From Candidatus Omnitrophota bacterium (GTDB lineage: Bacteria > Omnitrophota > Omnitrophia > Omnitrophales > JACROU01), in NCBI GenBank assembly GCA_029261035.1, contig JAJDCD010000005.1, forward strand, positions 91,516 through 155,515: a DNA stretch of 64,000 bases. Reading direction: 5' to 3'. Shown in pieces: positions 29,624 through 48,600 of the stretch; the stretch's first letter is position 1; each line of letters opens with the position of its first letter. The notes beneath the pieces are model-generated. The model ran no database searches. It was not told the origin of the DNA and saw only the letters and a list, made by a program, of their open reading frames with translations. The position numbers and the translations under genes were made by a program.

Positions 29624-29728
29624 AATGAGTTTTAGCTCTATTTCTGCAGTTTGACATCCTACTTAAATCGTTTACTCTTATAGATATAGGAATGTAATAA
29701 AAAACTTATTAAATATATTAAAAATACA

Positions 29729-29879: not shown

Positions 29880-32800
29880 ATGACGTTAAAGTCTTTTCAA
29901 AAATCTCAGATTTTTGTTCGTTCTATAAGTATGCTAGTTCTGTCTGTCTTTTTGTTAGACTCTACGGTACAGGCCAGTCAGCTTAGTGTTCTTTCTCAGC
30001 AAGCTCCTTTAATTGTTGCTCCCAAGTATTTAAAATTACCTAATATTATTCCATCAGCAGAAGTAGCTCAGGTGGACGATTACTTCCTAAATGATTTATC
30101 TCACAAACCTATTCTTTATTTAATTCAAGATGCTCATGAGAGCTTAGACGCTCAGAAAAATATATATCAACTTTTAAAAATGTTAGTTCAAGAACGCGGA
30201 GTAAAAAAGGTTTATTTTGAGGGGGGAGCTACAGAATTAGATAAATCTTTTTATCAGTTTTCCAATAAGCCAAAGTTAAATCAAGATGTCTGGGAAGCCT
30301 TATTTGAATCAGGAGAGATGAATGGTGTTGAGTTTTACTCTACACAAGCGCCTGAGTATGTTCGTTTTTTAGGTGTTGAAGATGAATCATTGTATTTTGA
30401 AAATGTTTATGCCTTGAAAAAGGTATTTGATCTTCAAGATTTAACAAAAGAAAGATTAAATGAGGTAGAGCGGAAAATAGAGAATCTTAAGGGGGTTCAT
30501 TTAACCGGAGACTTGAAAAAAGTTTGGGATCTTCAGCAAAGCTTCGATAAAAAGCATATTGATTTATTTCAGTATGCAAACGAAGTGAGTCGTTGGACTG
30601 AGAAAGAGTTGCGTCTGGATATGTCTCAGGTTAGAAATCAGGATGCATGGCCTCAGTTGGTTCGTTTACAGCAAATCCGTATTTTAGAACAAGGAATACA
30701 ACAATCTCAAAAGGCCTTGCGCGTAGAGCTTCAATTGATTCAAGAAAGAAATAGAGGGGAAGTATTCCAACCATTTTCATTTTTATGGAACCCACAACAG
30801 CATGCTTTAGCTCAAGGGCATTTGAGATGGTATTTTGAAAAGTGTCTAGATCTCTTGAAAAAAAATAATCAATCTTTTAGTAAAGATTATCCACACCTAG
30901 AAAGCTGGATTGGTTTTCATATACTTAAAGATGAAATAAAAGCTTCAGATTTATTTAACGAGATTCAAGTATTGACGAATAAAGTTATTGAAAATATAGA
31001 AGTTTCCAATAACAGCAAATCTTTTTTGAGTTGGCTTCAGAAATGGAATTTATTTCAGAAATTAATCTTGGTTAAACTAAATAAAGAAGAGTGGCTTCAG
31101 ATTTTAAATCAAGAAGAAGCGTATGACCCTGTTAAACTATTAAATAATCCAGAATACTTCCAAGAACCTATTGAGAGTCTGGATATACTTCATCAACTTT
31201 ATCAAGAATCCCTTCAGAATTACCATTGTGTTACCCAAAGAGATCAGACTCTTTTTAATAAGATGATTCAAGACATTACTGCAAGTCCATCAGATTCCGT
31301 TTTGGTCATGGGAGGTTTTCATTCAGACGCCGTAAAAGCCTTGTTGAAACAAGAAAGGCAAAGCTTTGTTGTTTTTAATCCTGGAATTAAAGACTTGTCT
31401 CATACATTAGATTACAAATCCTTAATGACAAGAAACTCTATAAGTTCAATGAAGGAAGTTTCCCGAGATCAGGTAGCGGTTCCTTATGAAGCGGCATTTG
31501 GTGCAGATTCAAAAAATATCATTCCTTACCAAGAAGCTGTTCGTCAGCAAGCTCAGATTGCCTTGGCCGCAAGTTTAGGAAAAGTGAAGCATGGTGATGA
31601 GCCCTGGTTATCCGCTTTTGTTGCCATTGAATCCTTGATTGATGAGAATGATGTGATTTTTAGACTTGTATTTGAAGACGAATTTACAACGGAATTCCTC
31701 AAAGAAACATTAAGAAATATTTCAGACTCTTCACAAAGAAGGCTTCAAATTGATTCTGCTCATTTACTCAAAACATTTCTTATAACTACTTATGAAGAAA
31801 ACCATGATATCCTTGCCCCCAATTTCAGAGAATGGCTAGAGGAATTCAAAGGTTTGGCGAATGAACTTTATTCTAGAATTATGGAAATTTCAGATGCAGA
31901 GAATATTGCGGGCTTCTTAGAGAAAGGGCTCTTAAGTCAATATGACTCTAAGGGCACAACGACTGATATTGCAAAATTTAATGGGATTATGGATTTGGCA
32001 GGTATTGTTCAGGGAATGAATTCTCCTGTTAGAGATATTTATTCAGCAAGTCGTATAACAAATTTACTTTCTCCAGAAGTTCTTTTCTCTCATTCTGTAG
32101 TTCAAGGTCTGGATTTTGTTCAAGATGGAGAAGAGGTTGTAATCTATCATGAAGAAATTGATGATGAAGACGGAAATATTTTATTTTTTATTTTTATTAT
32201 TGATCAAACAATAGAACAAGGGGATGTTAAATCTACCCAAAGACGTGATTTCTTAATGAGCACCGTAACGGGTGATGTAATTCCTCTTGCTGTGGGGCAC
32301 GAGGATATTTTCTGGACAGAAGAAGATCAGTTACTACATGTCTTATATCCTCCGAATTTGGAAATTACTTATGACGTATTTTTGAAGCTGGATGATGGTG
32401 GGTTCGAGCCATTAAAGGCGCCTTATACAGCAAATAGTTTGGGGGCTTCAGCAGAGGATGGATCTGATCTTTCAAAGCAAGAGCGACTTAAACTACGACG
32501 TAATACTTTAAAATCTGTTTTAGACGATTTGATTGAGGATAAGACCTTTGTTACTTCATGGGGATTAGTTGGTGTTTTAGTGGAAAGAATTCTGGAGAAA
32601 GAACCTCGTTTAGCACAATTTGTGAATCGAAAACTTATTACAAATGACTTAAAGAAACCTGGAATTAAAGATAAATATACTAATTTAAGGAAGTTAATTA
32701 ACAAAAGAAAGGAGTCTTTGTCTGTTGCTGATATATCCTTAAAGACCAATACCATTACAGATGTGCGAAGAGCCTTGATGAAGCAGATTCTTTCCGAAAT

Positions 32801-35800
32801 TGAAGCATCAAATGCTGGGTTAGCAGTAGGAGATCAAGTTAAGTTAACCTCTCATCAACTCTTAGAAATGATGATTCAGAGAAAGCCTGAGTTAAAAGAA
32901 AAAATACGTTTAGATGCAACTCAAAATGATATTGCAAGAGGGATTATAAAAAGCTCAGCGCTATTGACGTATAAGAAACAACCTAAAATTAAAGAAGGTT
33001 TTGATTACACAGCTGTAGCCACAATGAAACAGATATTAGATGAATGGGGAGAGTTGCCAGCTAAAGGAGAAGAGTTATTAGAGCGATTATGGATGATTCA
33101 ACCAAAAGGACTTAGCAATAAGATTGAAATTCCTGCCTTCTATGAATTGGTAGAAAACATACCGTATATCTATTTTCATCCTAATTATACTGCTAGGAGA
33201 TATCGCACGGATAGCAGGAGTATAAATGACTTAAGAAGGACGATACGTAGATTGCTTAATTCGAATAAGGTTTTAACTCCTTTTCAAGTTTGGGAGCAAT
33301 TGAAGAAGAAATCTAAATTTAGAGACTTGTTTTATGTTGATTTCAATCGTGCTTTTCAGGAAGAAGCTTTTCCAGGTCAATTTGAAGAAATGACTCGAGA
33401 GCAAGCTGTTAATGAAATGGTGAGGTGGATACTAAATAGAGGTGTTTTTCAATATAGAATGACGGACCTTCATCAATCGCTTGAAACTGTTTTTGGTATG
33501 AAAATTACTCTTAAAGAGGTTCGGAAAGCTGTTCAAACAAATCAAGAGCTTTACTACCATAAAAGATTTGATGCTGGTAGAGAAAGAAGAGAGCTAATTA
33601 AAACAATTCTAGTGGATTCTGAAGATATCTGGTCTATTTCTTATAGTGCGCTTTTTACATTGTTGACAACGGATTTATTTGATGAGGAAGGTCTTCTTAG
33701 CAGGCTTTCTTTTAAAAAGCTAACAAAAAAACAATTGAATTTAGATTTAGAGATATTGGGAATAGACGATACGAACTCAAGATTGACTTATGTGGATTCT
33801 GGAACTGTAAAACCTTTTGATTATGCAGAGACTAGGGTCTTTGTAGAGGATGTGCTCACTATATTAAACGGAAACAGAAACTTAGAGTTGCAGCAAATTT
33901 TCAAAAAACTTCGAAGAGAGTTTCCTCGCAATGAAATTTATCAAAGGTTGACACTCCAAACATTTAGAAGAGAGTTCACCAACTCTCCTCAACTAGTGCT
34001 GCATCGTAGATATTTACTGCCAAGAGTCAAATATAAGCAAGATCGAACTTTACGTAGAGAGCTTTTAAGGGTGCTTGATGAGTATCCTCGATTGTCTCGA
34101 TATGGTCTTTGGTCTCGTTTACGTCAAAGAAAAGGTTTTGAAAATATTCCTTACTATAGAATTAGACCTTTTTTTGAGTCTGGGAGTGTAGATGATTTAG
34201 AAATTGTAGAGCATAAGAGATTTGGTAATGAGAATGAACGAGGATATATCCGAACTTTTGTGATTTGGATTTTGGATAATGTACCAGTGAAACGAAAGGT
34301 TGTTGTAGGAGATATTCAACAAGCTTTACTTTATGGTTTTGATATTAATGTAACTAGAGAGTTAATTCGGGGTTCAATTTTTCATTCAAGAGACGGATTG
34401 CATTCAGATAATAGGATGGATATAGATCAAGAAAGAAAAGAAATTTTAATTGATTATTTTTCAGATTATAACCTGCAGACAATTTCATTAAGCCAATTAC
34501 AATCTGATCTAAGAGGATTGGCTCAATACCTTGATTTTAGCGATGAAGTTATTTTAGCGGATCTTGAAGCTGTTGGGCTTCTGGACAGAGTTACGCTTGA
34601 AACGGCAACTTTGACGACTGATGGGTCAGAGGTCACTGTGACAGATCCTTTAGATAGTTCTGGTAATACAGTAAGAACTTTAGGGGCTGCTCCAGAAATT
34701 GAGTTAGGAGAGGGGGGTAGCGAAACTCGATTTAGAGTTCGGGATTTAGTTTTAGAAGGAAAAAGAGAACGGCCAGATACAGCCAGTCATTTTGGGTATG
34801 CTCGCATGAATGACGAAGTGATTTCTGCTAGAAGAAGAGAGATGATGAGAATATTAAATGAAGCGCAAGAGCTTGAAGTCCCAATTGGACCTAGAGAATT
34901 GTGGGATTCATTAAGAAGTAGGCCTGGTTTTGAACTTTCTACACTGGCAACTGTATTTTATGATTTAAAACGTATTCCGGAATTGGGTAATCATCCTGGA
35001 AGGAGAAGGGTAGATCGTTTAACTCTCCAAGAGCATGATGATTCTGATGAGAGCTTAATGAGAAAATTAACAGATAGAGTTATGTCTGAAATCACAAGTT
35101 GGAATTTGTTTAGAAGCAATGAAGACAAGCTCTTTCTGACCCCTGAAGAATTATATGATGTTATTATTGAAGCTCATAACTCTTTGGCAGAACGTTTAGG
35201 TCTAGAGCAATTTGTTGCATTTATTTCGGAGGAAAATATTAACTACCAATATCTTGTCGAGAGAAAAAGTTTTTCTGAATTAGAAACTCGTTACCAGGTT
35301 CTAGCGGTTACTTTATTGGTAGACTATTTAAATGAAGAAGGGACCTCACCGGCTAGTATTGAAGAGCACTTTTTAAAGTTAAAGTCCATTGATCCAGATT
35401 TGTTTTCGAGCATTGAAAGCGCATCATTTTTCTCTATTTGGGCTCAGTTCCCACAGCTTAATTATCATCCTAAAATACAAGGGAATAATCGATCTCAATT
35501 GGGATTAGATGAAATAGAGCTTCGGCAATTACAATATAGAATTTCAGGTCGCCTTAATGCTGCTGAACGACCTTTGACATCTCTAGATTTGCAACAGGCG
35601 CTACGAATTGTTAATGGGATGGAAATTGAATTGTCAGAACTGCAAGAAGAACTGCGTTCTCCTGAAAATAGAACGAACTTCTTTGAGCATCCAAATTTTG
35701 ATTCTGGTTATGAACAAAGATTAATGCTTGCTGAAGTGTGGGCAGGTGCTGATGGAATTATGTCTGAGCTTGAATTGTATGAGGAATTCTTTCAACGTTT

Positions 35801-38800
35801 TGGAATGTTACTTACTTTTCCAGAGTTTGAGAACCTTCTTGAAGTAAATAGTGATTTGTTTATTGATTACAGACAAATTGCTAGCTCTGGTAAGGCAAGG
35901 GTGCTACGCATTATGACAAAGGTTTTGGACTATTCAGAACGTTCTCTAACTTATAGAGATCTTCAAGCAATTCTTAAAGAAAAATTCAGTATTTATTTGG
36001 TACCAGCGTATCTTTATAACATCATTACAGAGAAAAATTCATTATCTTATTCTATTGTGAACCATCCAAAATATACTTTCCTTTCAGTGGGTCAACAAGA
36101 AGAAACTCACAAAGACGAAGTCTTTCAAGGGTTTTTAGGTCGCAGGGTGTATGAAGCCCTTTTCGTTACCAATACACGAATTACTACAATTGCTGATATC
36201 AGGGAATTGATTAAGCGAGGATATGTCGTTGGAGAAAGGTCGGATGAAGAAGTAGATCAAGCAATTAAGAATTATATTAATCAATCTATTTTGTTTAGGA
36301 ATGGACAAGGCCAATTTATAGGCCATTCGAACTTACTCGTTGATCTTGATTTTGTTGAACCAACTCGCCCTGGATATGATCAAACCATAACAGAGGCCGA
36401 AGTGGATCTGAGATTTGTGAATGAAGAGGTTGTTGAAGTAGTTACACAGGGACCTTCTGAAGTTAGAAAGATAAAACAAGCAGAAAAAACTAAGCTTGTT
36501 GTAGCTGGTATTTTGGCCATACTGAATGAGGTAGCGGAAGAACAAAAGTATAAGCATGCTGTAGAAAAAAGATTACTTAATGCTAATGATATTGCCGCTC
36601 TTTTAAAAGAACGTTCCCCTGAGCTTTTGCCATCTACGCGAACCCGAAATAATGAAATTTTTCATTATATTTATTCAAATGAGTCTCTTTATCATCATCC
36701 AATGTATGTTAGGCCTTTGAGATCTGGAGAAATTCTAACTGCGGCAGTATCTATTTTAGAGAAAAGTGAAAAAAAATTAGGCTCTTTTGATTTGTGGTTG
36801 GAATTAAGAGATTCTCCAGCTCTTCAAAATATTTCTTTTCGGGACTTTAAAAGAGCTATGAAAAACAGGGATGATCAATTTGATTTGTTTGAAAATTTCA
36901 AACCTTTAAGTGAGTCAGATGAATTAGAAAATGCTTTGCTTTTTATGGATGAATTGACTGCAAATAAAGATTTTTTAGAAATAAAAGGAATGTTAAGAAA
37001 CTTCTTTGATATTGACGCTACACCGGAGTCGATAGTTCGACTGTTAGGGCAAGGTATTGAAATAGATATTGATAACGCATTGAAACAAAGATATTTTGAG
37101 GACTTTATTTCTTTTCAAGTAGGTGGCGGGTATGGGTTAACTTTTGTCGGGGTTTTGAAAGCTTTGGAAGAAAGTTATGGTTGGGAATTGAGAGAAGAAG
37201 AATTGATCAACGTTATTCAAACAAGTTCTAATTTAAGTGTATATAAATATTTCTCGCCACGACTGATTGTTGCTATAGAAGCTAAAAGAATACTAGATAG
37301 GTCGGATAGAAAGATTACTATTGAAGAAATTCATCAACGGATGAAAGAGCGACTTCCTGATGTCAAAAGTATTCATAATGATAATGCTTTAAGCCTTTTA
37401 GACTTTATGATGGAAAGAGACCTTGTTGGTTTATATCACCACCCAAAATTTAAGTCGAAGGATTCTGTAACTATAGAGAAACTGTGGGAAGAATTTAACC
37501 AATTAAATATTTCAGAAATTACAGGAAGTGATTCTGTAAGCATATCCAAGACAAATAAGGATAGAGTTTTGATTGTTACATCTTATAGTCCAAAGCAAGT
37601 AAGACAACGTACTATTTTAGAGGAGTTAGATATTAAATACAACCAGCCTATTCCTGAAAATGCTTGGACTGGATTAAGAAGAGATATGACGGCGGCAGAA
37701 GTATTGAGTGCTATAAAAGAAAAATTTGGAGTTGTTGTTTCCCCCGCAGAATTTAGAAGAATAGCTCTTAGAAAATCTGGTAGTACATCTGACCTGTTAG
37801 CGCATACGCGTTATATGGGTTACATCAACGAAAGAAGGTTAAGGATTAAACAGGTTTTAGACAGGAAAAAAGTAACTCGATTTAGGCTTATGCCTAGTGA
37901 TATTGCGAGAGAAATTTTAGATGAGTTTCAGATATCTGCAACTACAACAGATATTATGAAGGATTTGATTGTTATTGATGGTGGATCTTATATTCATCAT
38001 CCAAATTTTCTACATCAGAGAGAAGTAGTTCAAGCCAAGAAAGATGCTGTAAGAGAGTTGTTGATAGAAATAGCCAATGGAAGAGATGCTGTAGATGTTA
38101 AATTTAGTACTCTTATACCAAAGCTGAAAAATCTATATGGTTTTGAGGTGGCTCTTCGAAGTTTGGAAAAGATTTTTAGAGATAGTAAAAATTACTATGA
38201 TTTTAGAATTAGTCGTCAACAAGGAGATATGACGGCTCATATTCAAAAGTTTAAAACTGATGAGCCTCAAGCGCAACCAACGAAGCCGACTGTTGAAAGA
38301 GCGGAAGCATCTAGTTTGGGTGCAGCAATTAACCGAGATGATGTAATTCGTTTTGAAGAAAGTTACGATGTGACTTTGGAAAGTGTTTTAGATATTATTT
38401 CGGCAACACGGGAAGTATTGGGGCCTGATTTAAGAGACTACTTTCCTTATATTTACAAACAAATGTTAGCAGCACTTGAAAAAGAATCTGAGGTGCAAGT
38501 GCCTGCTTTGGTTGTTGCAGGGGAGGTAAGTCCTGAAGCGGTGCTGGTGCAAGTTAAATCAAATACAACGTTTGTTATTTACTATCAAGACGAAAGTTAT
38601 CCAGAGCAAATTGCTGTTGTAGCAGAAGAATTGATTCAATCAGGATTGATTGCCAGAGAAGATATAGATTCTCATATTCATTTGGTTTCTTTAAGTGATT
38701 TAGGTATTACAGAGCTTGAATTTTATGAACAATTATTTGATGGAGAAAAACTAACAGGTAAGAACCTTGCGCGCATTGCAAATGACGCGGGTATTTACAA

Positions 38801-39116
38801 ATTAAGAGAGCATACAGTATGGTTAGATTCCTCAGAGCGCATTCAAACTGTGATGGAAGATATGCTTGTCCCTTTTGGTCTACCATTTGAAGCAGAGCGC
38901 CGGGATTCTCTTTTAAAAGAGAATCGTGCTTACTATGACATGATTAAATTGACTTTGGCCTCTGCTTTATCTAGAAATCCTAACGCTTTAGTTGAACGGG
39001 GATATGTCATCTTTAAAAATAACCGCTACCAAATGACTGACTCCTTCATCGCTTCATACCTCGAAGGAATCTTGACCCAAGAACGAGTACAAGACCTCAT
39101 TGCCAGCATGGCATAA
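29880..39116 (+). CDS. Giant protein 1 (3078 aa): signal-peptide-like N-terminus, N-domain shared with giants 2 and 3, degenerate internal repeats with a recurrent YHHP-type motif, and a shared C-terminal domain
   Basis: Uninterrupted 9.2-kb ORF. N-domain motifs 'YLIQDAHESLDAQKNI', 'VYFEGG' and 'MGGFHSDAV' are shared with the other two giants. The C-terminal 270 aa are homologous to the ends of giants 2 and 3. Confidence 0.85.
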   Translation: MTLKSFQKSQIFVRSISMLVLSVFLLDSTVQASQLSVLSQQAPLIVAPKYLKLPNIIPSAEVAQVDDYFLNDLSHKPILYLIQDAHESLDAQKNIYQLLKMLVQERGVKKVYFEGGATELDKSFYQFSNKPKLNQDVWEALFESGEMNGVEFYSTQAPEYVRFLGVEDESLYFENVYALKKVFDLQDLTKERLNEVERKIENLKGVHLTGDLKKVWDLQQSFDKKHIDLFQYANEVSRWTEKELRLDMSQVRNQDAWPQLVRLQQIRILEQGIQQSQKALRVELQLIQERNRGEVFQPFSFLWNPQQHALAQGHLRWYFEKCLDLLKKNNQSFSKDYPHLESWIGFHILKDEIKASDLFNEIQVLTNKVIENIEVSNNSKSFLSWLQKWNLFQKLILVKLNKEEWLQILNQEEAYDPVKLLNNPEYFQEPIESLDILHQLYQESLQNYHCVTQRDQTLFNKMIQDITASPSDSVLVMGGFHSDAVKALLKQERQSFVVFNPGIKDLSHTLDYKSLMTRNSISSMKEVSRDQVAVPYEAAFGADSKNIIPYQEAVRQQAQIALAASLGKVKHGDEPWLSAFVAIESLIDENDVIFRLVFEDEFTTEFLKETLRNISDSSQRRLQIDSAHLLKTFLITTYEENHDILAPNFREWLEEFKGLANELYSRIMEISDAENIAGFLEKGLLSQYDSKGTTTDIAKFNGIMDLAGIVQGMNSPVRDIYSASRITNLLSPEVLFSHSVVQGLDFVQDGEEVVIYHEEIDDEDGNILFFIFIIDQTIEQGDVKSTQRRDFLMSTVTGDVIPLAVGHEDIFWTEEDQLLHVLYPPNLEITYDVFLKLDDGGFEPLKAPYTANSLGASAEDGSDLSKQERLKLRRNTLKSVLDDLIEDKTFVTSWGLVGVLVERILEKEPRLAQFVNRKLITNDLKKPGIKDKYTNLRKLINKRKESLSVADISLKTNTITDVRRALMKQILSEIEASNAGLAVGDQVKLTSHQLLEMMIQRKPELKEKIRLDATQNDIARGIIKSSALLTYKKQPKIKEGFDYTAVATMKQILDEWGELPAKGEELLERLWMIQPKGLSNKIEIPAFYELVENIPYIYFHPNYTARRYRTDSRSINDLRRTIRRLLNSNKVLTPFQVWEQLKKKSKFRDLFYVDFNRAFQEEAFPGQFEEMTREQAVNEMVRWILNRGVFQYRMTDLHQSLETVFGMKITLKEVRKAVQTNQELYYHKRFDAGRERRELIKTILVDSEDIWSISYSALFTLLTTDLFDEEGLLSRLSFKKLTKKQLNLDLEILGIDDTNSRLTYVDSGTVKPFDYAETRVFVEDVLTILNGNRNLELQQIFKKLRREFPRNEIYQRLTLQTFRREFTNSPQLVLHRRYLLPRVKYKQDRTLRRELLRVLDEYPRLSRYGLWSRLRQRKGFENIPYYRIRPFFESGSVDDLEIVEHKRFGNENERGYIRTFVIWILDNVPVKRKVVVGDIQQALLYGFDINVTRELIRGSIFHSRDGLHSDNRMDIDQERKEILIDYFSDYNLQTISLSQLQSDLRGLAQYLDFSDEVILADLEAVGLLDRVTLETATLTTDGSEVTVTDPLDSSGNTVRTLGAAPEIELGEGGSETRFRVRDLVLEGKRERPDTASHFGYARMNDEVISARRREMMRILNEAQELEVPIGPRELWDSLRSRPGFELSTLATVFYDLKRIPELGNHPGRRRVDRLTLQEHDDSDESLMRKLTDRVMSEITSWNLFRSNEDKLFLTPEELYDVIIEAHNSLAERLGLEQFVAFISEENINYQYLVERKSFSELETRYQVLAVTLLVDYLNEEGTSPASIEEHFLKLKSIDPDLFSSIESASFFSIWAQFPQLNYHPKIQGNNRSQLGLDEIELRQLQYRISGRLNAAERPLTSLDLQQALRIVNGMEIELSELQEELRSPENRTNFFEHPNFDSGYEQRLMLAEVWAGADGIMSELELYEEFFQRFGMLLTFPEFENLLEVNSDLFIDYRQIASSGKARVLRIMTKVLDYSERSLTYRDLQAILKEKFSIYLVPAYLYNIITEKNSLSYSIVNHPKYTFLSVGQQEETHKDEVFQGFLGRRVYEALFVTNTRITTIADIRELIKRGYVVGERSDEEVDQAIKNYINQSILFRNGQGQFIGHSNLLVDLDFVEPTRPGYDQTITEAEVDLRFVNEEVVEVVTQGPSEVRKIKQAEKTKLVVAGILAILNEVAEEQKYKHAVEKRLLNANDIAALLKERSPELLPSTRTRNNEIFHYIYSNESLYHHPMYVRPLRSGEILTAAVSILEKSEKKLGSFDLWLELRDSPALQNISFRDFKRAMKNRDDQFDLFENFKPLSESDELENALLFMDELTANKDFLEIKGMLRNFFDIDATPESIVRLLGQGIEIDIDNALKQRYFEDFISFQVGGGYGLTFVGVLKALEESYGWELREEELINVIQTSSNLSVYKYFSPRLIVAIEAKRILDRSDRKITIEEIHQRMKERLPDVKSIHNDNALSLLDFMMERDLVGLYHHPKFKSKDSVTIEKLWEEFNQLNISEITGSDSVSISKTNKDRVLIVTSYSPKQVRQRTILEELDIKYNQPIPENAWTGLRRDMTAAEVLSAIKEKFGVVVSPAEFRRIALRKSGSTSDLLAHTRYMGYINERRLRIKQVLDRKKVTRFRLMPSDIAREILDEFQISATTTDIMKDLIVIDGGSYIHHPNFLHQREVVQAKKDAVRELLIEIANGRDAVDVKFSTLIPKLKNLYGFEVALRSLEKIFRDSKNYYDFRISRQQGDMTAHIQKFKTDEPQAQPTKPTVERAEASSLGAAINRDDVIRFEESYDVTLESVLDIISATREVLGPDLRDYFPYIYKQMLAALEKESEVQVPALVVAGEVSPEAVLVQVKSNTTFVIYYQDESYPEQIAVVAEELIQSGLIAREDIDSHIHLVSLSDLGITELEFYEQLFDGEKLTGKNLARIANDAGIYKLREHTVWLDSSERIQTVMEDMLVPFGLPFEAERRDSLLKENRAYYDMIKLTLASALSRNPNALVERGYVIFKNNRYQMTDSFIASYLEGILTQERVQDLIASMA

Positions 39117-39274
39117 CGACAAAATACGCAGGTTCGTCATGCGCTACAAATAGGCGTGTCCGGCAAACGTCAGCATCTATCTTTTTTTAATAATAGATTA
39201 CCACAGCAAAAAAGTTTCTTATTTAAAGTCTATTTCCACTCATTTGGGTCCGGGCCCGAACGACTAAGGAAATT

Positions 39275-39316
39275 CTGTCATCTTTGAGCCTAAGCGAAGG
39301 ATGACAAGATTTTTTC
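39275..39316 (+). terminator. Terminator-like hairpin plus T-run downstream of giant gene 1
   Basis: 'tctgtcatc' ... 'gatgacaag' stem followed by 'tttttt'. Confidence 0.4.
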
Positions 39317-39317
39317 C

Positions 39318-39366
39318 AAACAGGCCCGGGCCTCTTTTTTTCGAAAAAAGTAGGCCCGGGCCTGTT
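39318..39366. repeat. 49-bp palindromic element, copy 1 (two GGCCCGGGCC-core palindromes flanking a T7/A6 hairpin)
   Basis: 'aaacAGGCCCGGGCCTctttttttcgaaaaaagtAGGCCCGGGCCTgttt'. Near-identical to 45443-45494. A third, degenerate 'gggtccgggccc' lies at 39246. Confidence 0.6.
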
Positions 39367-39631
39367 TACGTATTTACGGTTAGGTAAAAAAGGGCATATT
39401 TGACTTAAATTGTTTATTTATATCTATTTAAATTTCAGAATCTTAAAATTCCTTCATTTTTTTCGATTTTCCTCATAATTAGTACTTGAAATATAAAGTC
39501 TATAGGGTAGAATTACGTCTAAATTATCCTTTGTTAAAGTATTAAAAAAATATAATTTTTCTCAAAGGTTCTCACATTAGCTTAAAGGAGTAAGCGAATA
39601 TAATACGACAACAAAGAAAGGGACCGCTCCC

Positions 39632-42600
39632 ATGACGCTTTTGATACGTTTTAAGCAGGCCGTAACCTATTTTGTTTTAGTTTCATTTTTCTTCTCATTT
39701 CTTCCAACAAATTCTTATGCAGATGGTGCAACCATTGGTACAATAAACAGCCTTATGACCACCAATCAATCTATGACACCAACACAACTCAAATTAAGCG
39801 AAGTAGCCATCCCTAATAAGATAGGTGTTATTGAATATACCTTCAAGGGGAACTCTGCGCCTTTATTTTATATTCAGGATGCTCATAATTCATTAGAAGC
39901 TCAAAAAAACATAGCGGCTTTAATTAGTCTTTTGGTGCAAGAGTACGGTGTTAAGACTGTTTTGGTTGAGGGAGTTGAAGGTAAGGTAAATCTGGACACT
40001 TATTTTCAATTTTCAGATTCTAATGTTAAGGAAAAAGTTTCAGACTATTTTCTGGAACACCTTCGTCTGAGCGGAGCTCAATATGCTCATATTAATCGAA
40101 CCCAAGATTTTGATCTTATTGGAATTGATCATTTTAAAACATATAAGAAAAATCTTTCAGCCTATGAAAAAGCTGCAAAAAACCGAGAAGTCATTCAGCA
40201 AGACTTGGCTCGAATTTCTAAAGTTCTTAAGTCTTTAGGGGATCGTTTCTATTCTAAAGAAATTAAGGAATGGTTAAAGTTAAAGTTAAGAGTGGAAGAT
40301 AAAAAGCTTTCGATGGGGGATTACCTGTTTCGTTCGATGAAAATGGGCGATTTTCAATTAGAACAATTTCCAAATTTGAAATTAATTTCAACATACCTCA
40401 AACAAGATCAATTATCTAAAGAAGAAGCAAGCCTTTTAGACAAACAATTGAAACAATTGGATTCGGATGTTTTTTTTAATGAATTGAATCAATTTGAAGA
40501 GGCTTTAATTAATCAGTTTTTGACGGACGCTACAGCTAAACAAGTATTAAGATATCAACGTATCGTTGATTTGTTAAATAAACTGAACCTGATTTCAGTA
40601 ACACCGGAAGAGTATTTATTGTTGAAAGAAGAGTTGAAAGAATTTAACTCTGAAGTTCTGGCTAAATTTTTAGCTGCCCATTTAAAGAAAACAATTTTAG
40701 TAAAAAAAGAATGGGAAAAGCTAATCAAGAACTCCCTTGAGTTTTATGAGTTGGCTCGCGAAAGGGATGTTTTCTTCAAAAGACAACTTGAAGCAATTAA
40801 CACCCCTTCAATTTTGGTTACAGGAGGTTTTCATAAAGAGCCTGTGACTAACTTCTTGAAAAAGAATAAAATTTCTCATGCTGTTTTGGCACCTCAAATT
40901 AGTCGTATCAATAAGAAGTATCAAGAACGATATGATTTCTTAATGTCTGGTCAGTATTATGACTTTGAAACATCTTTTATCAAACAAGACCCTGCCGTAC
41001 AAGCAGCTCAGCAGCAAACCTTAGCTTCATTTGCTCGAGATGGGCGGAATGTTCAAGGGATTGTGAATGAAGCGATTATTCAGTTGTTTCCTAATTCCCA
41101 AGAGGCTCGTGCTGCTAGTTTAGGAAATGATAATGCTCTAAAAATTGAACAAGCTTTGAGTCAGGGAGATATTACAACCGGAACCATGCAGTATCTTTAT
41201 GAGTGGTTGAAGCTTCCTGGAGACTTAACTATTCAAGGGACAAATGTATTAGCACGTATTCAGACATTGATAGATGGTAAAAATTGGAAAGAGCTTAATG
41301 ATGCTTTTTTTCAAGAAGTAAAACCAGGAACGGCAGGTGTTCGTGGAGAGTTGGGGATCGGAAGTAATCGAATTAATGTGGTAACCATTGGTAAGTTTGT
41401 AGAAGGTCATGCTCGCCACTTGGAAGCTGTGTGGGCTGGTAAGGTTGAAGGAAAAGAGATTGATACAAACAAGACAGAAAAGGCTGTAATTTTAGCTTAT
41501 GATCCTAGAGAAGGTTCTTATGACGCCCAAGCTAAAGGGCCAGGTTATTTAGTTAAAATGGCTGCTGCCATTTATGCAGCGCATGGATTTAAAGTTTACG
41601 TGTTTGATGGTCCTGCACCAACGCCAGAGTTGTCCTTTGCAGTTCAAAAGCTGGGGGCATTAGCAGGTGCTGTATTTACAGCAAGCCATAATCCTAAAAC
41701 GGATAATGGGTTTAAACCTTATGACGAAACAGGTCAGCAACTTTTAGGCCCAGATGCTGAAGGTCTAAATCAATATGTGGCTGAGATAAAACAGTTTTCT
41801 GATGTGAAAAAAGCATCTTATGATGAAGCTCTTGAGAAAGGGCAGGTTGAAATTGTAGGGCCTACCATTGATGAACAATATGTAAGTGAGTTGCTTCAGT
41901 ATGGTGTGCACATTAAAGCTGATGGTAAATATGACCTAGAACACATTAATACAGATATTACTGTTGGATTTTCTCCTTTGCATGGTACAGCGGGAAGAAC
42001 AGTTCCTGCTTTATTAGCAGAAAGAGGAATTTCTGCAGAAAATATTTTTAATGTTGAAAGCCAATTAAAACCTGATGGAACATTTCCAACAGCAGCAAAG
42101 CCCAATCCAGAAGAGGATGCGGCGTTAGATTTGTTAAAACAATTGGCAGTTGAAAAGAAAGTTGATGTAGCAGCAGCCAACGATCCTGATGCAGATAGGG
42201 TTGCTGTTTTGGTTCCAACCAGTGATGCTAAAGAAGAGTATTTTCTTCTAAACGGGAATCTACAAATGGCAGTGATTGCGGATTATTTACTGAACCAACT
42301 TTCTAAAAAAGGAACTTTACCTAAAAATTCTGTTTTTTGGAAATCTTTGGTGAGCTCAGATCTTATGATGAAAATAGCAGAAGCTTTTGATATTCCAACT
42401 GTAGAATCCCGAGTTGGTTTTAAATTTGCCGGGGATAAAATGAAGGAATACGAAAAACTAGCCGTTGCTCAATTGTTATTAAATGATGAAGAAGAATTTG
42501 TTGCTATTAAAACAAAAGTTGAAAACGACGGGTACAAGAGTCTAAATCGATCCGAAAGAGAATTGATTCTTTCTCGTTTCTCTCAAGTTCTATTGTTTGG

Positions 42601-45355
42601 TGGAGAAGAATCTTATGGGGCTAATCGTGGGGATATTGTTCGAGATAAAGATGGTCCTGCTATGATTGATATGTTTGTTGAAATTGTTGGACGGTATAAA
42701 AAACAAGGAACAACTGTTTATGATCGTCTTTTTGGAGCTAAAGGCATTTTTGATACCTATGGGTATTATCGTGAAACTTTAGGTTCTTACAAGACGCAAG
42801 GAGCTGAAGGAAATGCAATTAAACAAGCGATTATGACAGAGTTTGCATCCAATCCTCCAGCAGAAGTTGCGGGAAAGAAAGTTGTGGCTGTGTTAGATTT
42901 TGCAGAGCAGACAGCTAAATTACCTAAAGGAACACTTCTTTTTGATGGGGAATATAAAAGCGAAACTACTCCAGGTAAGTTTGAACTTGAAAATGAGTAT
43001 GAAGTACATACGTTTAATGACTTGAATGGTAAAAATGTGGGGAGAGAAGGATTTGTGGAGTTGATTTTTGAAGATGGTTCCCGTGTCATTGTAAGACCTT
43101 CAGGGACAGAACCAAAAATTAAATTTTATGCCCTTGGAAGAGGAGAATATTCTGATCGTGAGGCAGTTGATGTATTTATCTCTGCCGCACAAACGGAATT
43201 AGCAGAAATTGCAACCAAAGTTGCAGATAGTTTTAATGCGGCTTCTCTAGGAGCGTATTCGGAAGCTGAATTGGAAAAAGGGAAGGCTTATTATGAAGGA
43301 AGGTTGGATACAACCCCTATTTCTCGACCATGGAGACCTAGCATTGATGCTGACGTTGATGCTATCTTTAAGATGGATACTGCTGAAAGGTTAGAATACA
43401 TTGCTTTGGCGGTTGAATCTCTCATTAAGGGGAAGGGTGTTATAGGAACTCTTGCTGCAGGTGCTAGTTCTCGTATGCCAACTTCTGAGGCTCCTGAAGA
43501 AGTTAAAGAATTGATTCAAGGTAGGGAGATTAAGTCTAAAGCTGCTGTTCCAGTAGGTGTTCTTGATGGACAGGTTTATACTTTTTTAGGAGCTTTCCTA
43601 AAAAATATTGAGCGTCTTCAAAATCAAATTTCTGATTTAGCACGTTCTGATGTTAGACCTTCTGTTTTGATTTTATCTAATCAAGATTATAGGGAAGAGC
43701 TTCAGACGGAGTTGGATAGAGAAAGTCGTTATGGTTTAGATGAGAGTCAATTTGTGGTTTTTAATCAGGAGTTAGGCAACCAATATGTTGCTACTCCAGA
43801 GCATGTCAGAAATCTATATGAATCTGGAAAAATTGATAAAGCTAGATACGATCAAGCAATAGAAATTTCTGAGAATGTTCAAAAGAGATTGTCTGATGGC
43901 AGTATTGAGGCGGTAATTTTGGAGGGGGAACAAACTCCTTTAGGTCATGGTGAGTTTTTTCATCAATTAATTTCTAGCGGGACATTTTTGCAGCTCGTAG
44001 ATAAAGGGCATGAATGGATAAGTGTTCGTAATATTGATAATGCAGCGGCCACTTTTGATGAAGACTGGCTAGTTACTTTGGGTCTTTTTATAAAAAAAGG
44101 ATTGGCGATGCAGCCTGAGGTATCTCCGCGAAGCCCAGGACAAAAAGGTGGAAGTTTGATTGTTACTACAGATAACGGAAATCATCGATTGGCTGAAGAT
44201 CCTGAGATTGCTGCAAAGGGCTCAGAAACCAATTTGCAAAAGGATTATATTGGAGAGACTTCTTATTGGTTTAATGATGCTGTTGCGATTATTGGAACTC
44301 AATTTGTTGTTGATATTTATAAATCTCCTAACCAGTCTAGTGAGGAATTTCTAAATGAACTTCGTGCTAACGCAGAAAACCCAACTGTGCTTGAAGCAAT
44401 AGCTGAAAGAGGGAGAAGTAAATTTCCAACGCTCATGGACCCTAAACCAGCGAAAGAAAGTGACGCAATATCACTAAAGATTGAAACGAATATGTGGCAG
44501 TCTACAGGTGTTGGTAGTGGTGCTGTTAGAGTAGAAGCTGTTGGAGTAACTGCAGTAAAGAATATAGAGCAAGGTTTTGCTGATTTGCCTCTTGAAGATC
44601 AGCGGCAGAAGGTTAGAGAATTAAGAATGTTAGCAACAAAGCAATGGGGGAATCCGGAAGATCCTCAAGTTGAAACTTATTATGGAAATAAGCCTTACAT
44701 AGAACTAATTTTGGAACACATTGCAACTTCTCAATTTATTCCAGAAGGTTTAGATCTGTCAAAAGCTTCAAGTTTGGGTGTGATGACCAAGGAAAAAAGA
44801 CTATCATTACTGGAGTCAGCATTTAATGATTATGCTGCTCTCTTGGATCAACCAGCACCGGTTGTTCTTTCGTTAGACGATGTGCTTAACTTTTCAGATA
44901 CGGTGGCTAAAGAGGTTCAAGTTCTTCTCTTAGAAGGAAAGATAAAGGTTCTTTTAACAGGGGTGACTGATCGCTCATTAGTTCCAGATGTTTTTAATCA
45001 GGAATCTCAAAATGTAGAAATTATTTCAGATGCTATTAGCGCAAACGATGTATCTAAATACAGTGGTTTCTTAGGAAAGGGAAAAGTGGTTCACTTATCT
45101 CAATCTTTAGATTCTCCTGAAACGATAGCCTCTCGTTTGGGTGACGCAAAAGACCGCTTTGTTTTCGTGAAACAACCAGAAAAACAAAACGGAGTATTAA
45201 GCGCCGCGCTTCTTTTCGCATCAGGTTCTATTGAATACAAAGAAGCATTCAGACAAGACGCTTCTGGTTTCTACGTTCCAACAGCCATAGGTCGTCTCAT
45301 GATGAATTTATTCCAAGAATATGTAGCGCAAACGATTATCGAGTCTGCAGCCTAA
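39632..45355 (+). CDS. Giant protein 2 (1907 aa): signal peptide, shared N-domain, a complete alpha-D-phosphohexomutase (PGM/PMM) domain, a eukaryotic-type UDP-glucose pyrophosphorylase (UDPGP family) domain, and the shared C-terminal domain
   Basis: PGM motifs all in frame: 'GTAGVRG' (~41330), 'TASHNP' (41678-41695), 'DPDADR' (42182-42199), 'GEESYG' (42602-42619) and 'RPSGTEPKIKFY' (43094-). UDPGP-like: 'LAAGASSRM', 'FNQ', 'GHGEFF' (43943-) and 'ISVRNIDNAAATFDEDW' (44030-). Confidence 0.85.
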   Translation: MTLLIRFKQAVTYFVLVSFFFSFLPTNSYADGATIGTINSLMTTNQSMTPTQLKLSEVAIPNKIGVIEYTFKGNSAPLFYIQDAHNSLEAQKNIAALISLLVQEYGVKTVLVEGVEGKVNLDTYFQFSDSNVKEKVSDYFLEHLRLSGAQYAHINRTQDFDLIGIDHFKTYKKNLSAYEKAAKNREVIQQDLARISKVLKSLGDRFYSKEIKEWLKLKLRVEDKKLSMGDYLFRSMKMGDFQLEQFPNLKLISTYLKQDQLSKEEASLLDKQLKQLDSDVFFNELNQFEEALINQFLTDATAKQVLRYQRIVDLLNKLNLISVTPEEYLLLKEELKEFNSEVLAKFLAAHLKKTILVKKEWEKLIKNSLEFYELARERDVFFKRQLEAINTPSILVTGGFHKEPVTNFLKKNKISHAVLAPQISRINKKYQERYDFLMSGQYYDFETSFIKQDPAVQAAQQQTLASFARDGRNVQGIVNEAIIQLFPNSQEARAASLGNDNALKIEQALSQGDITTGTMQYLYEWLKLPGDLTIQGTNVLARIQTLIDGKNWKELNDAFFQEVKPGTAGVRGELGIGSNRINVVTIGKFVEGHARHLEAVWAGKVEGKEIDTNKTEKAVILAYDPREGSYDAQAKGPGYLVKMAAAIYAAHGFKVYVFDGPAPTPELSFAVQKLGALAGAVFTASHNPKTDNGFKPYDETGQQLLGPDAEGLNQYVAEIKQFSDVKKASYDEALEKGQVEIVGPTIDEQYVSELLQYGVHIKADGKYDLEHINTDITVGFSPLHGTAGRTVPALLAERGISAENIFNVESQLKPDGTFPTAAKPNPEEDAALDLLKQLAVEKKVDVAAANDPDADRVAVLVPTSDAKEEYFLLNGNLQMAVIADYLLNQLSKKGTLPKNSVFWKSLVSSDLMMKIAEAFDIPTVESRVGFKFAGDKMKEYEKLAVAQLLLNDEEEFVAIKTKVENDGYKSLNRSERELILSRFSQVLLFGGEESYGANRGDIVRDKDGPAMIDMFVEIVGRYKKQGTTVYDRLFGAKGIFDTYGYYRETLGSYKTQGAEGNAIKQAIMTEFASNPPAEVAGKKVVAVLDFAEQTAKLPKGTLLFDGEYKSETTPGKFELENEYEVHTFNDLNGKNVGREGFVELIFEDGSRVIVRPSGTEPKIKFYALGRGEYSDREAVDVFISAAQTELAEIATKVADSFNAASLGAYSEAELEKGKAYYEGRLDTTPISRPWRPSIDADVDAIFKMDTAERLEYIALAVESLIKGKGVIGTLAAGASSRMPTSEAPEEVKELIQGREIKSKAAVPVGVLDGQVYTFLGAFLKNIERLQNQISDLARSDVRPSVLILSNQDYREELQTELDRESRYGLDESQFVVFNQELGNQYVATPEHVRNLYESGKIDKARYDQAIEISENVQKRLSDGSIEAVILEGEQTPLGHGEFFHQLISSGTFLQLVDKGHEWISVRNIDNAAATFDEDWLVTLGLFIKKGLAMQPEVSPRSPGQKGGSLIVTTDNGNHRLAEDPEIAAKGSETNLQKDYIGETSYWFNDAVAIIGTQFVVDIYKSPNQSSEEFLNELRANAENPTVLEAIAERGRSKFPTLMDPKPAKESDAISLKIETNMWQSTGVGSGAVRVEAVGVTAVKNIEQGFADLPLEDQRQKVRELRMLATKQWGNPEDPQVETYYGNKPYIELILEHIATSQFIPEGLDLSKASSLGVMTKEKRLSLLESAFNDYAALLDQPAPVVLSLDDVLNFSDTVAKEVQVLLLEGKIKVLLTGVTDRSLVPDVFNQESQNVEIISDAISANDVSKYSGFLGKGKVVHLSQSLDSPETIASRLGDAKDRFVFVKQPEKQNGVLSAALLFASGSIEYKEAFRQDASGFYVPTAIGRLMMNLFQEYVAQTIIESAA
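41250..43170 (+). other. Phosphoglucomutase/phosphomannomutase-like domain within giant protein 2
   Basis: All five phosphohexomutase signature motifs are present in the canonical order (see giant 2). Confidence 0.8.
43300..44750 (+). other. UTP-glucose-1-phosphate uridylyltransferase-like (UDPGP family) domain within giant protein 2
   Basis: The 'GHGE...SG...L..G.EWISVRNIDNAAATFD' block parallels eukaryotic UGPase 'GHGD...SG...G.EY.FVSNIDNLGATVD'. Gly-rich 'GTLAAGASSRM' parallels 'LNGGLGTSMG'. Confidence 0.6.
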
Positions 45356-45374: not shown

Positions 45375-45407
45375 GGGCCAGGTCCTTCGGGAGCCTGGCC
45401 TTTTTTG
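45375..45407 (+). terminator. Rho-independent terminator downstream of giant gene 2
   Basis: 'gggccaggtcc ttcg ggagcctggcc' hairpin followed by 'ttttttgtc'. Confidence 0.6.
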
Positions 45408-45442: not shown

Positions 45443-45494
45443 AAAACAGGCCCGGGCCTCTTTTTTGCGAAAAAAGCAGGCCCGGGCCTGTTTT
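45443..45494. repeat. Palindromic GGCCCGGGCC element, copy 2
   Basis: 'aaaacAGGCCCGGGCCTcttttttgcgaaaaaagcAGGCCCGGGCCTgtttt'. A near-perfect 50-bp palindrome. Confidence 0.6.
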
Positions 45495-45539: not shown

Positions 45540-45580
45540 TTAAAAATTAGCTCTTTAGTTGCAATTCTTTTATAATAGGG
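45540..45580 (+). promoter_or_regulatory. Candidate promoter for giant gene 3 (perfect -10 TATAAT at 45571-45576; weak -35)
   Basis: TATAAT lies 94 nt upstream of the GTG start at 45670. No strong -35 hexamer at 16-18 nt spacing. Confidence 0.3.
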
Positions 45581-45669
45581 TACACTTCTACCTTATTCTT
45601 AGGTAATTCCTTTGTTGTAACTTTAGGTTCTGGAGACTTAAATCAAGGGAGTTCTATACCCTGAATAAA

Positions 45670-48600
45670 GTGTCTTTTAGAAAGGTTTTTGCTTATTTAA
45701 TGGGATTTTTGTTGGCACAAAAATATAGGTGTTTAGTAAGGTTTATATCCATAAACTTGGCTTTTATCTTTTTGTTGAATACGGTTGTTGAAGCAGCTCC
45801 GTTGATGCAACATGTGATGACTCCGTCTGTCTTATCCCAATCTGCTATTAATTCTTTTTCTCAACCTCCTTATCTTCCTTTAAGCCCAATTCAAATCAAT
45901 TCCCAGATAGGTTCTGTTCAAGAGAGCTATTTACCCGTAACAAAAAAAGATTCTCCACAAGTTTACTTAATTCAAGATGCTCATGAGAGTTTGGATGCTC
46001 AAGAGAATATTAAGAATATTTTAGAAAAACTTGTTCTAGAGGAAGGTGTGGATACCCTTCTTTTTGAAGGTGGAAGTCTTGATTTTAATTCAAGTATTTA
46101 TCAATTCTCTTCTGATATGGAAATAAATCATCGAATGTGGAAAGAGTTGTTTCGTCAAGGGCACTTGAGCGGGGTGGAGCTTTTTGCTTTAAATCAAAGT
46201 GGTTCCGTTCGATTGAAAGGAATTGAAGATGAATCTATTTATTTTAAAAATCTCAAAACAATTTTAGATACAAATCGACTTTATAAAAAATCTCAAGATG
46301 AGATATTGAGAATAGATCAGCAATATACAATAAAGAAACAAAAAACTTTTTCTGAGCCTTTAAGAAAATTAATAAAAGAAAGAGATGATTTTAGAAAAAA
46401 CAAAAACAATTTTAATCCATATATGCTCTTTTTGATGAAAGAAGCTAAAAAGCGTATAAACCTGGATTTGTCTCAAGCTAAATACCAAAAGCAATACCCT
46501 CAACTTGTGCGTTATTCGAAAATTTCTCAATTTGAAAAAAAGATAAAAGAAAATAGGGATGAAGTGGAGAAGCAACGTATAGAGCTTTTAGAGTTAACTC
46601 AGAATAAGGTGGCTAAGAGTTTGACTAAAGAAAGCTTTCTATTTCTTTTTAATCCAGAGCAACATTATTTAGCTCGAGATCAGTTGCGTTGGTATTTTGA
46701 GTCTTGGTGCGAATGGGCTCAGGCAGAAAATATTGATGTTCAGTTGTACTCTCATTTTATAAATTGGATGGCTTATCATATTCTTAAAAATGAAATGAAA
46801 GGCCCTCAGCTTTTTGATGAATTACAGACTATTGAAATCTTGTTGTTGAAGAATTTGAATCTATCAGAAGAAGAACGGAAGTTGTTGGCCGAAGAGGATG
46901 GGTGGAATTTATGGAATAAGCTCGTTTCTTTAAAGCTCACAAGAGAGGAGTATGAGCGACTTAGAGATACAAATCCTAAGAATGATTTAAAGGGTTTGAA
47001 TTTGTTAACCCAAAAAGCCCTTGAAAACTATGAATGGGTGATCAAAAGAGATGCTGTTTTGTCAGAAAAAGCAATTGAAGCAATAAATTTAAGTAAGTCT
47101 AGTCGAGTTGCTGTCGTTACGGGGGGGTTCCATTCTTACTTTTTAACCCAGAAACTTAAAGAAGAAAAAAAGAGTTATGTTTTAATTGCACCCCGTATTT
47201 CCCAATTAGAGCGTTCTTTGAATTATAAGGATCGAATTCAACAATTATTTTCTTCGACAACAGCATTGGATATTCCAGGAGCTCTTTTGAGCGATCTCTC
47301 CAAACAACGTTTGCTTGTAGCTGCAAGATCTTTGGGAATCCAAGGGGCTAAGAAAAAGGATCTTCCAAGAAAGAGTGGGGCTCAGAGAGAAGATGAAATT
47401 TTTAGAACTCATATTTCTGTGCCTATGCCAGAAATAGAACAGATGCTTTCCTTTCCAGGAAGAATCCAACCATCAATGCAAAATGCTTTGAATGAAACAA
47501 TCAAGCTGATTGTAACGCTGTTTGAAGATGCTTTAATTTCTGTTAATAGAAATGAAGTAGAAAATTTAAAGCGATTTCAAAAATACCCAGGAGGAATTTT
47601 TTATAATCATTTAACGGATGAGCTTAGAGGTGCTATTTCAAATTCTTTGGACTCAACTTTGGAGCGCTATCGACGAGAGGGTATTAGTAGGGAGTTTATT
47701 CATATTGTATTTCGAGTTTATAAGGACCAAGAAAGTAATTATTTTATTGATGTTATTGACGAAGGTGTTGGGGAAACAGCAATTAACAAGACGAATGTTA
47801 AACGTTATTCCGGAGAACGGTATTTAGGAAAGAGAGGAGTTGATCGAGGGAAATCTCTAGAAAGTCAAGTGATGGGTGTTTTTGATGCTCAGCTTTTTGA
47901 ACGAGAAGATGCTCAAGGTGCTGTTTTAGAAATAAAACTCAGCCAGAGAAAAGTCCTTAATCATTTTAAGGAATCAATGGAGGGTTTAAACCTTAGAAGG
48001 GTTAGTAAATACATGGATTCGTATGGGCAGAGTTTGGGTAGGACTAAAGAAGCTTACAATATGCGAATAAATGGTAACCAAGTAAATATACTTGACGCCA
48101 TGATGGAAGGAGAGTTTAAAACAACTTGGCTCACAAGTTTTAAACCTGAAGCATTGCCTAAACTAAAATTACCAGATAAAAAAGAATCGTATTCATTAGA
48201 TGAGGCTTTTATTGTTTTTAGGCAATTAAAGGGAAGTCGATCGTTAACTAAATCTGCATTTAGTGCATGGGTAAAAAAGGTTTTGAGTCGTAGAGCGAGT
48301 TCAAGGATATCTAGAGAATTGCTATCTAATTTGGTGAATACGTTTAGTCTTAGTGAAGCCCGTACTCATTTAGGTGGAGATATGGTAACTGTAAGAGAAA
48401 AAGCTAAGAAAGCAGGTGCTATTTCTGTAGAACATCGCATGTTTATTTCAAGGGATTGGGTTGATCGACAAAGAATTTATCGCTATCAATTGGTTCCGGT
48501 TCATTTGCTAGCAAAAGTAATGGGTGTGAGTAAGAAAGTTCTATTATCTTATTTGGAAGAGCCTAAGAAAAGATTCGGGGACTACTTGTGGGAAGAAGAC

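Follow-up and report, generated by a model that had tools for sequence, protein, structure and literature searches.

A nested twin-palindrome element of 50 to 52 bp is present in two copies in a 64,000-nucleotide stretch of the genome of a Candidatus Omnitrophota bacterium (NCBI GenBank assembly GCA_029261035.1, contig JAJDCD010000005.1, positions 91,516 to 155,515; hereafter the window), where the copies occupy the two spacers separating giant genes 1 and 2 and giant genes 2 and 3, which are arranged head to tail, all on the plus strand. Each copy is built from a unit of about 22 bp, consisting of an A-run, a self-complementary GC core and a T-run, that occurs twice in inverted (equally, tandem) order, and the whole copy folds into one long hairpin. 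In a tentative reading, to which we give somewhat less than even weight, the element could be a lineage-specific intergenic twin hairpin repeat resembling repetitive extragenic palindromic (REP) sequences and their inverted doublets (REPINs). Its effect is likely structural, that is, the hairpin would act as a boundary or insulator for read-through transcripts of the giant genes.

The cores share the 12-mer AGGCCCGGGCCT, which, as a preliminary description of this DNA had stated, is its own reverse complement. It occurs exactly four times in the window, always within the elements (Table 1), a count reached in 0 of 100 shuffles, which held on average 0.52 matches at up to two mismatches. The same four cores are all of the CCCGGG sites of the window, whose GC content of 37.1% agrees with the background of about 38% given earlier; a test for restriction-site avoidance was uninformative (four CCCGGG observed versus 2.3 expected). 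Both palindromes read exactly as first quoted, copy 2 at 45443-45494 (52 nt) and copy 1 from 39318, with its end one base beyond the 39366 originally given, at 39367 (50 nt). The potential 24-bp stem proposed earlier is borne out by folding, which gives each copy a stem of 23-24 bp, closed by a 3-nt loop and interrupted by a single bulged base. RNA folding energies with short flanks are -38.9 kcal/mol for copy 1 and -41.2 kcal/mol for copy 2 (z = -8.1 and -9.1), the corresponding DNA hairpins reach -26.6 and -27.6 kcal/mol, and no shuffle folds as stably as either copy. As inverted repeats the copies surpass all others of the region in length, and in a ranking of 23 intergenic regions of at least 55 nt they are the most stable intergenic hairpins, at about -38 and -39 kcal/mol as RNA, the runner-up being an ordinary terminator at -27.7 kcal/mol. 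Half hairpins of one core and its T-run reach only -4.3 to -7.4 kcal/mol (z about 0), no better than shuffles. The degenerate further core reported at 39246 was also found; it contains a 10-mer with one mismatch to the core. Since chance would supply only 0.10 such matches per window, this core is more likely to be related to the element than to have arisen at random.

Table 1. Coordinates (window numbering) of the twin-palindrome element, its cores, the giant genes and the sites in the spacers
Feature	Position	Strand	Remarks
Twin-palindrome copy 1	39318..39367	.	50 bp; AAAC-core-C-T7-CG-A6-GT-core-GTTT; covariance model 85 bits
Twin-palindrome copy 2	45443..45494	.	52 bp; AAAAC-core-C-T6-GCG-A6-GC-core-GTTTT; covariance model 88.5 bits
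Core 1a, AGGCCCGGGCCT	39322..39333	.	Self-complementary
Core 1b, AGGCCCGGGCCT	39352..39363	.	Centre 30 bp from core 1a
Core 2a, AGGCCCGGGCCT	45448..45459	.	Self-complementary
Core 2b, AGGCCCGGGCCT	45478..45489	.	Centre 30 bp from core 2a
Solitary degenerate core, GGGTCCGGGCCC	39246..39257	.	66 nt from copy 1; relic half-element or auxiliary site
Terminator-like structure of gene 1	39276..39315	+	TGTCAT...ATGACA REP-like hairpin (39276-39306) and T6 run; -14.7 kcal/mol; ends 2 nt before copy 1
Canonical intrinsic terminator of gene 2	45375..45406	+	GC stem with UUCG loop (hairpin 45375-45400) and T6; -23.9 kcal/mol, z -4.7; ends 36 nt before copy 2
Promoter-like site of gene 2	39486..39513	+	TTGAAA-16-TAGAAT; from scan; 118 bp after copy 1; putative function
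Promoter-like site of gene 3	45559..45586	+	TTGCAA-16-TACACT; by eye, below scan threshold; 64 bp after copy 2; putative function
Giant gene 1	29880..39116	+	3078 aa; N-terminal signal/anchor and shared domain of about 450 aa; C-terminal 300 aa common to gene 3
Giant gene 2	39632..45355	+	1907 aa; shared N-terminal domain, phosphoglucomutase I-IV and UDP-glucose pyrophosphorylase domain; between both element copies
Giant gene 3	45670..63333	+	5887 aa; shared N-terminal domain, about 20 HTH_17-containing modules, C-terminal domain common to gene 1

Alignment of the two spacers confines their similarity to the 50-52 bp of the element, ending at its edges; an extended homology upstream, counted by eye as about 59% identity over some 34 columns, was judged unconvincing. 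The copies differ only in one base each of the loop (T/G) and the bulge (T/C) and in the symmetric stem end (A3..T3 versus A4..T4), with pairing intact at every difference, and all four cores are identical, the variation falling between and outside them. Since the N-terminal domains encoded downstream, in genes 2 and 3, have only 25% amino-acid identity against 96% for the elements, the 96%-identical 50-mer could not be a passive remnant of an ancient giant-gene duplication, and the DNA copies would be much younger than that duplication or homogenised. Judging from these identities, either the element was copied recently, through gene conversion or duplicative spread, or constraint would act on its every base.

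The positions proposed earlier, about 90-200 nt downstream of genes 1 and 2 and behind terminator hairpins, agree with the measurements: copy 1 begins 202 nt and copy 2 88 nt after the upstream stop codon, and a hairpin with a T6 run precedes each. In addition to what had been described, the two copies have the same orientation and are thus direct repeats that flank gene 2 together with its promoter-like site and terminator. The long stem itself is followed by TTTACGTA or TTTTAAGA, with four T in the first eight nucleotides, so that a transcript would carry 3-4 U and then ACG or AAG. The promoter-like site of gene 3 was read by analogy to the promoter of gene 1, which is conserved in a related locus (L029), and to that of gene P0127 in another (L038). 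No element copy lies upstream of gene 1, whose promoter, TTGAAT-16-TGgTATATT (window 29700-29830), has its counterpart at 17700-17850 of L029; T.TACCTT after this promoter and the leader motif CATGGAGGAGGTGA are kept in the giant gene of L029 despite 34% protein identity.

No sequence similarity to any described repeat family was found in the collections scanned. Rfam returned no match at the gathering threshold, and its sub-threshold matches were generic long hairpins (the Thr leader at 30 versus 55 bits, the plastid psbJ 3'UTR at 28 versus 62 bits, and miRNA precursors). BLAST of the element with its flanks against plasmid and phage collections gave no match, and viral contigs gave none for either the dual-core pattern or the pattern of one arm plus T6. 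An exact dual-core scan of 185,579 species genomes found 25 loci, nearly all in high-GC taxa (such as Streptomyces and Actinomycetes); they are taken as chance matches, as judged from record titles with GC content not computed. The single match of the arm plus T6 pattern in JGI metagenome contigs lies inside an open reading frame (ORF) of a GC-rich contig and is attributed to chance, and the literature on the 12-mer yielded engineered primers only. A covariance model built from the two copies (R1) recovered only these in the window, the next match being the gene 2 terminator at 21 bits. The comparison set consisted of seven other Omnitrophota loci with the same N-terminal-domain family (L026, L029, L031, L035, L037, L038, L039 and L041, including some duplicates). 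In other Omnitrophota loci the model found generic long hairpins only. In L029, the closest retrievable relative, PrpC is 77% identical and the gene order matches as far as a giant gene of 3647 aa, whose N-terminal domain shares 34% identity with the N-terminal domains of genes 1 and 3; GGCCCGGGCC is absent from 21 kb of this locus, a stretch reaching the first 1061 aa of the giant gene, short of giant-gene junctions. No gene-2 orthologue from the L029 contig was among the matches.

An architectural analogue is present at a giant-gene junction of another Omnitrophota metagenome-assembled genome. The gene P0127 of L038 (NCBI GCA_015233195.1, JADFYE010000003.1; 37% GC) is the analogue of gene 2, with the same N-terminal, phosphoglucomutase and UDPGP domains, and a 79-bp gap separates it from the next long ORF (1895 aa). 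This gap holds a palindrome of about 50 bp, TCCGTAACCCCTGGGGTTGTCATAAATTTGACAACCCCAGGGGTTACTTACGG (17837-17887; -44 kcal/mol, z -8.75), whose sequence is unrelated to the window element (15 bits with the covariance model). The nesting, however, is that of the window element: an AT-rich centre lies between two self-complementary GC cores, AACCCCNGGGGTT, at a spacing of 27 bp. That both follow this plan is unlikely to be a coincidence, because in simulation only 0.4-0.75% of random 19-23-nt hairpin arms contained a self-complementary 12-13-mer. The L038 palindrome has no U-tract and stands 26 nt before the next start codon, which leaves no room for a promoter, so that it can only be transcribed within a polycistronic RNA. 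Another nested twin palindrome, AGCGACTTTAGTCGCT with AGCGAATAAATTCGCT, occupies 2622-2668 of L031, in a spacer adjoining small genes.

Other repeats and hairpins were noticed in the same loci. L031 has long intergenic hairpins (stems of 15-30 bp) without a U-tract at 959-1014, 2622-2668 and 3580-3650. Two giant genes of L039 (GCA_016180425.1) are preceded by two or three TGTTACA direct repeats and then TT(G/T)AAGAAAAGTTT (9780-9850 and 17080-17130), which looks like a common regulatory site. The giant gene P0132 of L041 is flanked on both sides by a repeat of about 55 nt, GGGAACATTTCGAGAAATACTGGAC..GAAAC.GTTG (around 9770-9830 and 17445-17500), and a serine recombinase gene lies 7 kb downstream. 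Lineage-specific repeats around giant genes are thus common but varied in kind.

A REPIN is defined as two inverted REPs with a spacer, forming a hairpin (PMC3116915, PMC3337134), and the element answers to this description with two units of about 22 bp joined in a 23-24-bp stem. Like the REPINs of Pseudomonas and Enterobacteria and the bacterial interspersed mosaic elements (BIMEs) of E. coli, it consists of short extragenic palindromic units paired inversely in one long hairpin, has discrete edges, and occurs as near-identical copies amid unrelated flanks, between genes at their 3' ends; the genome also carries a second REP-like family. A REP/REPIN-type repeat is favoured because it is what short, near-identical palindromes in bacterial spacers would be expected to be a priori, and because of the inverted-doublet anatomy and the second REP-like family in the lineage. 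Turnover of repeat copies would also leave a decayed solitary core such as that at 39246-39257. REPINs, however, number tens to hundreds per genome versus two copies and one degenerate core in 64 kb here, and in the element the spacer between units is only 3-4 nt and each core is a perfect 12-bp palindrome. Membership of the REPIN family is not established. The second family, with ends TGTCAT(CC..)...(..GG)ATGACA, is common to the window (8123-8162, 39276-39306, 63355-63379 and 63414-63450) and to L029 (16777-16807, 17517-17541 and 17588-17609); one member is the terminator-like hairpin of gene 1, two follow gene 3, and one in the window is unrelated to the giant genes. An argument from a battery of hairpins after the giant genes was dropped, since other spacers also carry two or three.

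Under the favoured reading, the two copies would derive recently from one another by duplicative spread or gene conversion, and they would function through structure rather than sequence, marking and insulating the boundary of consecutive giant-gene units. Transcripts passing the upstream terminator would fold a very stable stem, which could stop 3'-to-5' exonucleases, serve as a double-stranded processing site or impede RNA polymerase, with the result that messages of 6-18 kb would be kept separate. A role via structure and transcription is supported by the L038 analogue, which is unrelated in sequence, of the same design, and, from its position, necessarily transcribed. Hairpins with such stabilising or processing roles in intercistronic or 3' positions include the REP in malE-malF, the RNase III sites between phage T7 early genes, and the Correia elements cut by RNase III. 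The element resembles them as a very stable stem without a U-tract between consecutive coding units, and the L038 analogue lies necessarily within a polycistronic RNA. It differs in that each unit of the window seemingly has its own terminator and promoter, and the T7 sites have internal loops instead of nested palindromes.

Nevertheless, a number of observations count against a structural REP-like repeat. A generic repeat would be expected elsewhere too, yet a copy is missing from all 28 remaining intergenic regions of the window, and the length-weighted chance that two independent insertions landed in just these two spacers is 0.02-0.04, which suggests that the element is associated with the giant genes. 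The gene of a cognate REP-associated tyrosine transposase (RAYT; Y1, IS200-IS605-type), which REPs as a rule flank, is missing from the 64 kb, although this is not decisive for a single-copy gene; the GTAG-type 5' motif of REPs is absent, the flanks being AAAC/GTTT and CC/AC or TC/AA; and no target-site duplication was found at the element. The analogue stands at one of about four other tandem long-ORF junctions examined, with no such hairpin at the junctions of L031 (a 30-nt gap), L026 (overlapping genes) and L039. The element is placed behind apparently competent terminators, so that it is perhaps rarely transcribed, and no U-tract follows the stem. Finally, a purely structural role leaves the self-complementary arms and the identity of the four cores unexplained.

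It is this last point that keeps alive an alternative at the DNA level, which we consider unlikely: an operator- or enhancer-type site in which each 12-bp dyad would be bound by a homodimer, and two dimers 30 bp apart (about three helical turns) would co-regulate the promoters of genes 2 and 3. A site for a dimeric regulator had been among the roles first suggested, and it draws on the four identical dyad cores, whose equal 30-bp spacing is kept in both copies and outside of which all variation lies, on the additional degenerate core (a fifth) nearby, and on the placement upstream of promoter-like sites. The analogue in L038 likewise has two dyad cores, the TGTTACA repeats of L039 indicate that shared upstream motifs for giant genes exist in the phylum, and near-identity of the element against a coding background of 25% identity fits a sequence-specific constraint. 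On the other hand, the distances to the promoter-like sites are unequal (118 versus 64 bp), gene 1, with a promoter conserved in L029, has no copy, the syntenic region of L029 (21 kb covered) lacks the core, and the L038 analogue lies 26 nt before a start codon without a promoter. No transcription factor gene adjoins the giant cluster, the only regulator-type gene of the window being a lone receiver domain at 3325-3690. The sigma-54 version, with bacterial enhancer-binding proteins at upstream activating sites about 100-150 bp before TGGCAC-N5-TTGC, was rejected: no -24/-12 site with fewer than three mismatches lies downstream of either copy, and matches across the window are below chance level. 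The best -24/-12-like match of the window, TGGCATGACTATTGCT (22344-22359, one mismatch), overlaps the annotated start of amt, an ammonium transporter gene; it could be a chance match, or the true amt start could lie further downstream.

The preliminary description had also proposed a bidirectional terminator or insulator. The hairpin and its position between units are consistent with the boundary or insulator part of this idea; a canonical bidirectional intrinsic terminator, acting as a fail-safe in which the halves (A-run, GC hairpin, T-run) or the whole stem stop RNA polymerase in both directions, is improbable. Such a terminator would account for the A-tract, GC palindrome and T6-7 in each half, for the A3-4 and T3-4 flanking the whole stem, and for the placement 3' of giant genes, downstream of stop codons. 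A consensus terminator scan flagged only a weak hairpin of 5 bp, formed on the minus strand by one half of copy 2. The U-tract, however, follows only the half hairpins, which are as weak as shuffles, whereas the 23-24-bp stem is far longer than usual and is trailed by only 3-4 U and then ACG or AAG on leaving it, without a U-tract on either strand; the element consequently falls outside the intrinsic terminator class (at least five U of eight). Genuine terminators already precede both copies, and there are no minus-strand genes near the elements that would need bidirectional termination.

A bolder proposal, which we likewise regard as improbable, is that nested twin palindromes are a recurrent, selected junction module of Omnitrophota giant-gene arrays, which would be recognised, in double-stranded, extruded or transcribed form, by a dedicated dimeric protein or nuclease so as to delimit, process or exchange modules, gene 2 being one exchangeable module.

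As a structural element of the DNA itself, the palindrome would serve as a supercoil sink or cruciform, or, like the BIMEs of E. coli, as a site for gyrase or a nucleoid protein, and would relieve torsional stress from transcribing very long genes for membrane-targeted proteins; this reading is very unlikely. The near-perfect palindromes with AT-rich centre and GC-rich arms favour extrusion, as do the DNA hairpin energies given above, the spacer between terminator and next promoter-like site is apparently untranscribed, and the giant proteins begin with a signal/anchor helix. The proposed role is nonetheless indistinguishable here from a passive repeat, gene 1 has no upstream copy, and the L038 analogue lies inside an operon.

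Least probable of all is a recombination or cassette boundary, also raised earlier, in which gene 2 would have been inserted site-specifically between its two giant neighbours, leaving the direct copies as joints, or the copies would allow its excision or exchange. The copies do enclose just one unit, made up of gene 2 with its promoter and terminator, the closer paralogues are genes 1 and 3 (35% N-terminal identity and a shared C-terminus) with gene 2 an outlier at 25-26%, no gene-2 orthologue of L029 was matched, and the single bulged base recalls the extrahelical bases of integron attC sites, which are also imperfect palindromes repeated in one orientation downstream of successive genes. 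Against this, no recombinase, integrase, transposase or RAYT is among the window ORFs, gene 2 comes with a promoter-like site and a terminator of its own and matches its neighbours in GC content, GC content at third codon positions and tetranucleotide usage, showing no signature of horizontal transfer, the internal symmetry of each copy (A3/T3, A4/T4) is not expected from a central crossover of two different parental sites, and phage, plasmid and viral collections hold no matches. An attC site as such was rejected: the RYYYAAC...GTTRRRY cores are absent, the ends being TCCAAAC..GTTTACG and CTCAAAAC..GTTTTAA, there is neither IntI nor attI, and the 'cassettes' would be genes of 6-9 kb with their own promoter-like sites, a third gene having no copy. 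Miniature inverted-repeat transposable elements (MITEs) or Correia-type elements (100-300 bp, with terminal inverted repeats and target-site duplication) were likewise discarded for an element of 50-52 bp without a duplicated flank. On the whole, the observation behind the preliminary description is confirmed and its interpretation partly supported.

Giant genes 1-3 fall into a class already described, that of long Omnitrophota proteins with several enzyme domains (bioRxiv 10.1101/2023.11.21.568195; 10.64898/2026.06.07.730766). The words palindrome, terminator, intergenic and hairpin are absent from both preprints, of which one deals with giant genes and the other surveys genomes across the phylum, giant genes included. 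In agreement with an origin of the window from Omnitrophota, its methylcitrate synthase has its next-best named relatives in Candidatus Omnitrophica metagenome-assembled genomes. Their shared N-terminal domain of about 450 aa also forms the N-terminus of about 84 long proteins (1000-3300 aa) with varied enzyme domains, the named carriers being almost all Omnitrophota metagenome-assembled genomes. The domain, at 29880-31400, 39632-41100 and 45670-47250 in the window, has invariant IQDAH..AQ, EG, R and GGFH motifs and no Pfam match. Its AlphaFold model (pLDDT 82) has weak but coherent best matches in the PDB, to the erythromycin-esterase-like structures 3b55, 2rad and 6xcs and to ChaN (2g5g), with E values of 0.03-0.7, and the domain is a candidate member of an erythromycin-esterase / ChaN / Tiki-TraB-like superfamily with a large helical insertion. 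Gene 3 encodes, behind an N-terminal signal/anchor, about 20 copies of a module of some 90 aa, each with an HTH_17 (excisionase/MerR-type) DNA-binding motif, in blocks at aa 1150-1614, 2427-2698, 2910-3215, 3503-3683 and 3943-4518. Such a giant poly-HTH protein is unusual, and no result links the palindromes to its HTH modules.

No curated family contains the element, yet in kind it is most likely another intergenic palindromic repeat specific to its lineage. Should it be no more than a REP-like repeat, the finding would be an ordinary one, adding a further lineage-specific family of intergenic palindromes. How tandem giant genes of 6-18 kb are transcribed, separated and kept stable is nevertheless a current puzzle of Omnitrophota biology, and a junction hairpin with a counterpart in a second genome provides a handle for mapping transcript 3' ends and for a phylum-wide survey of giant-gene junctions.

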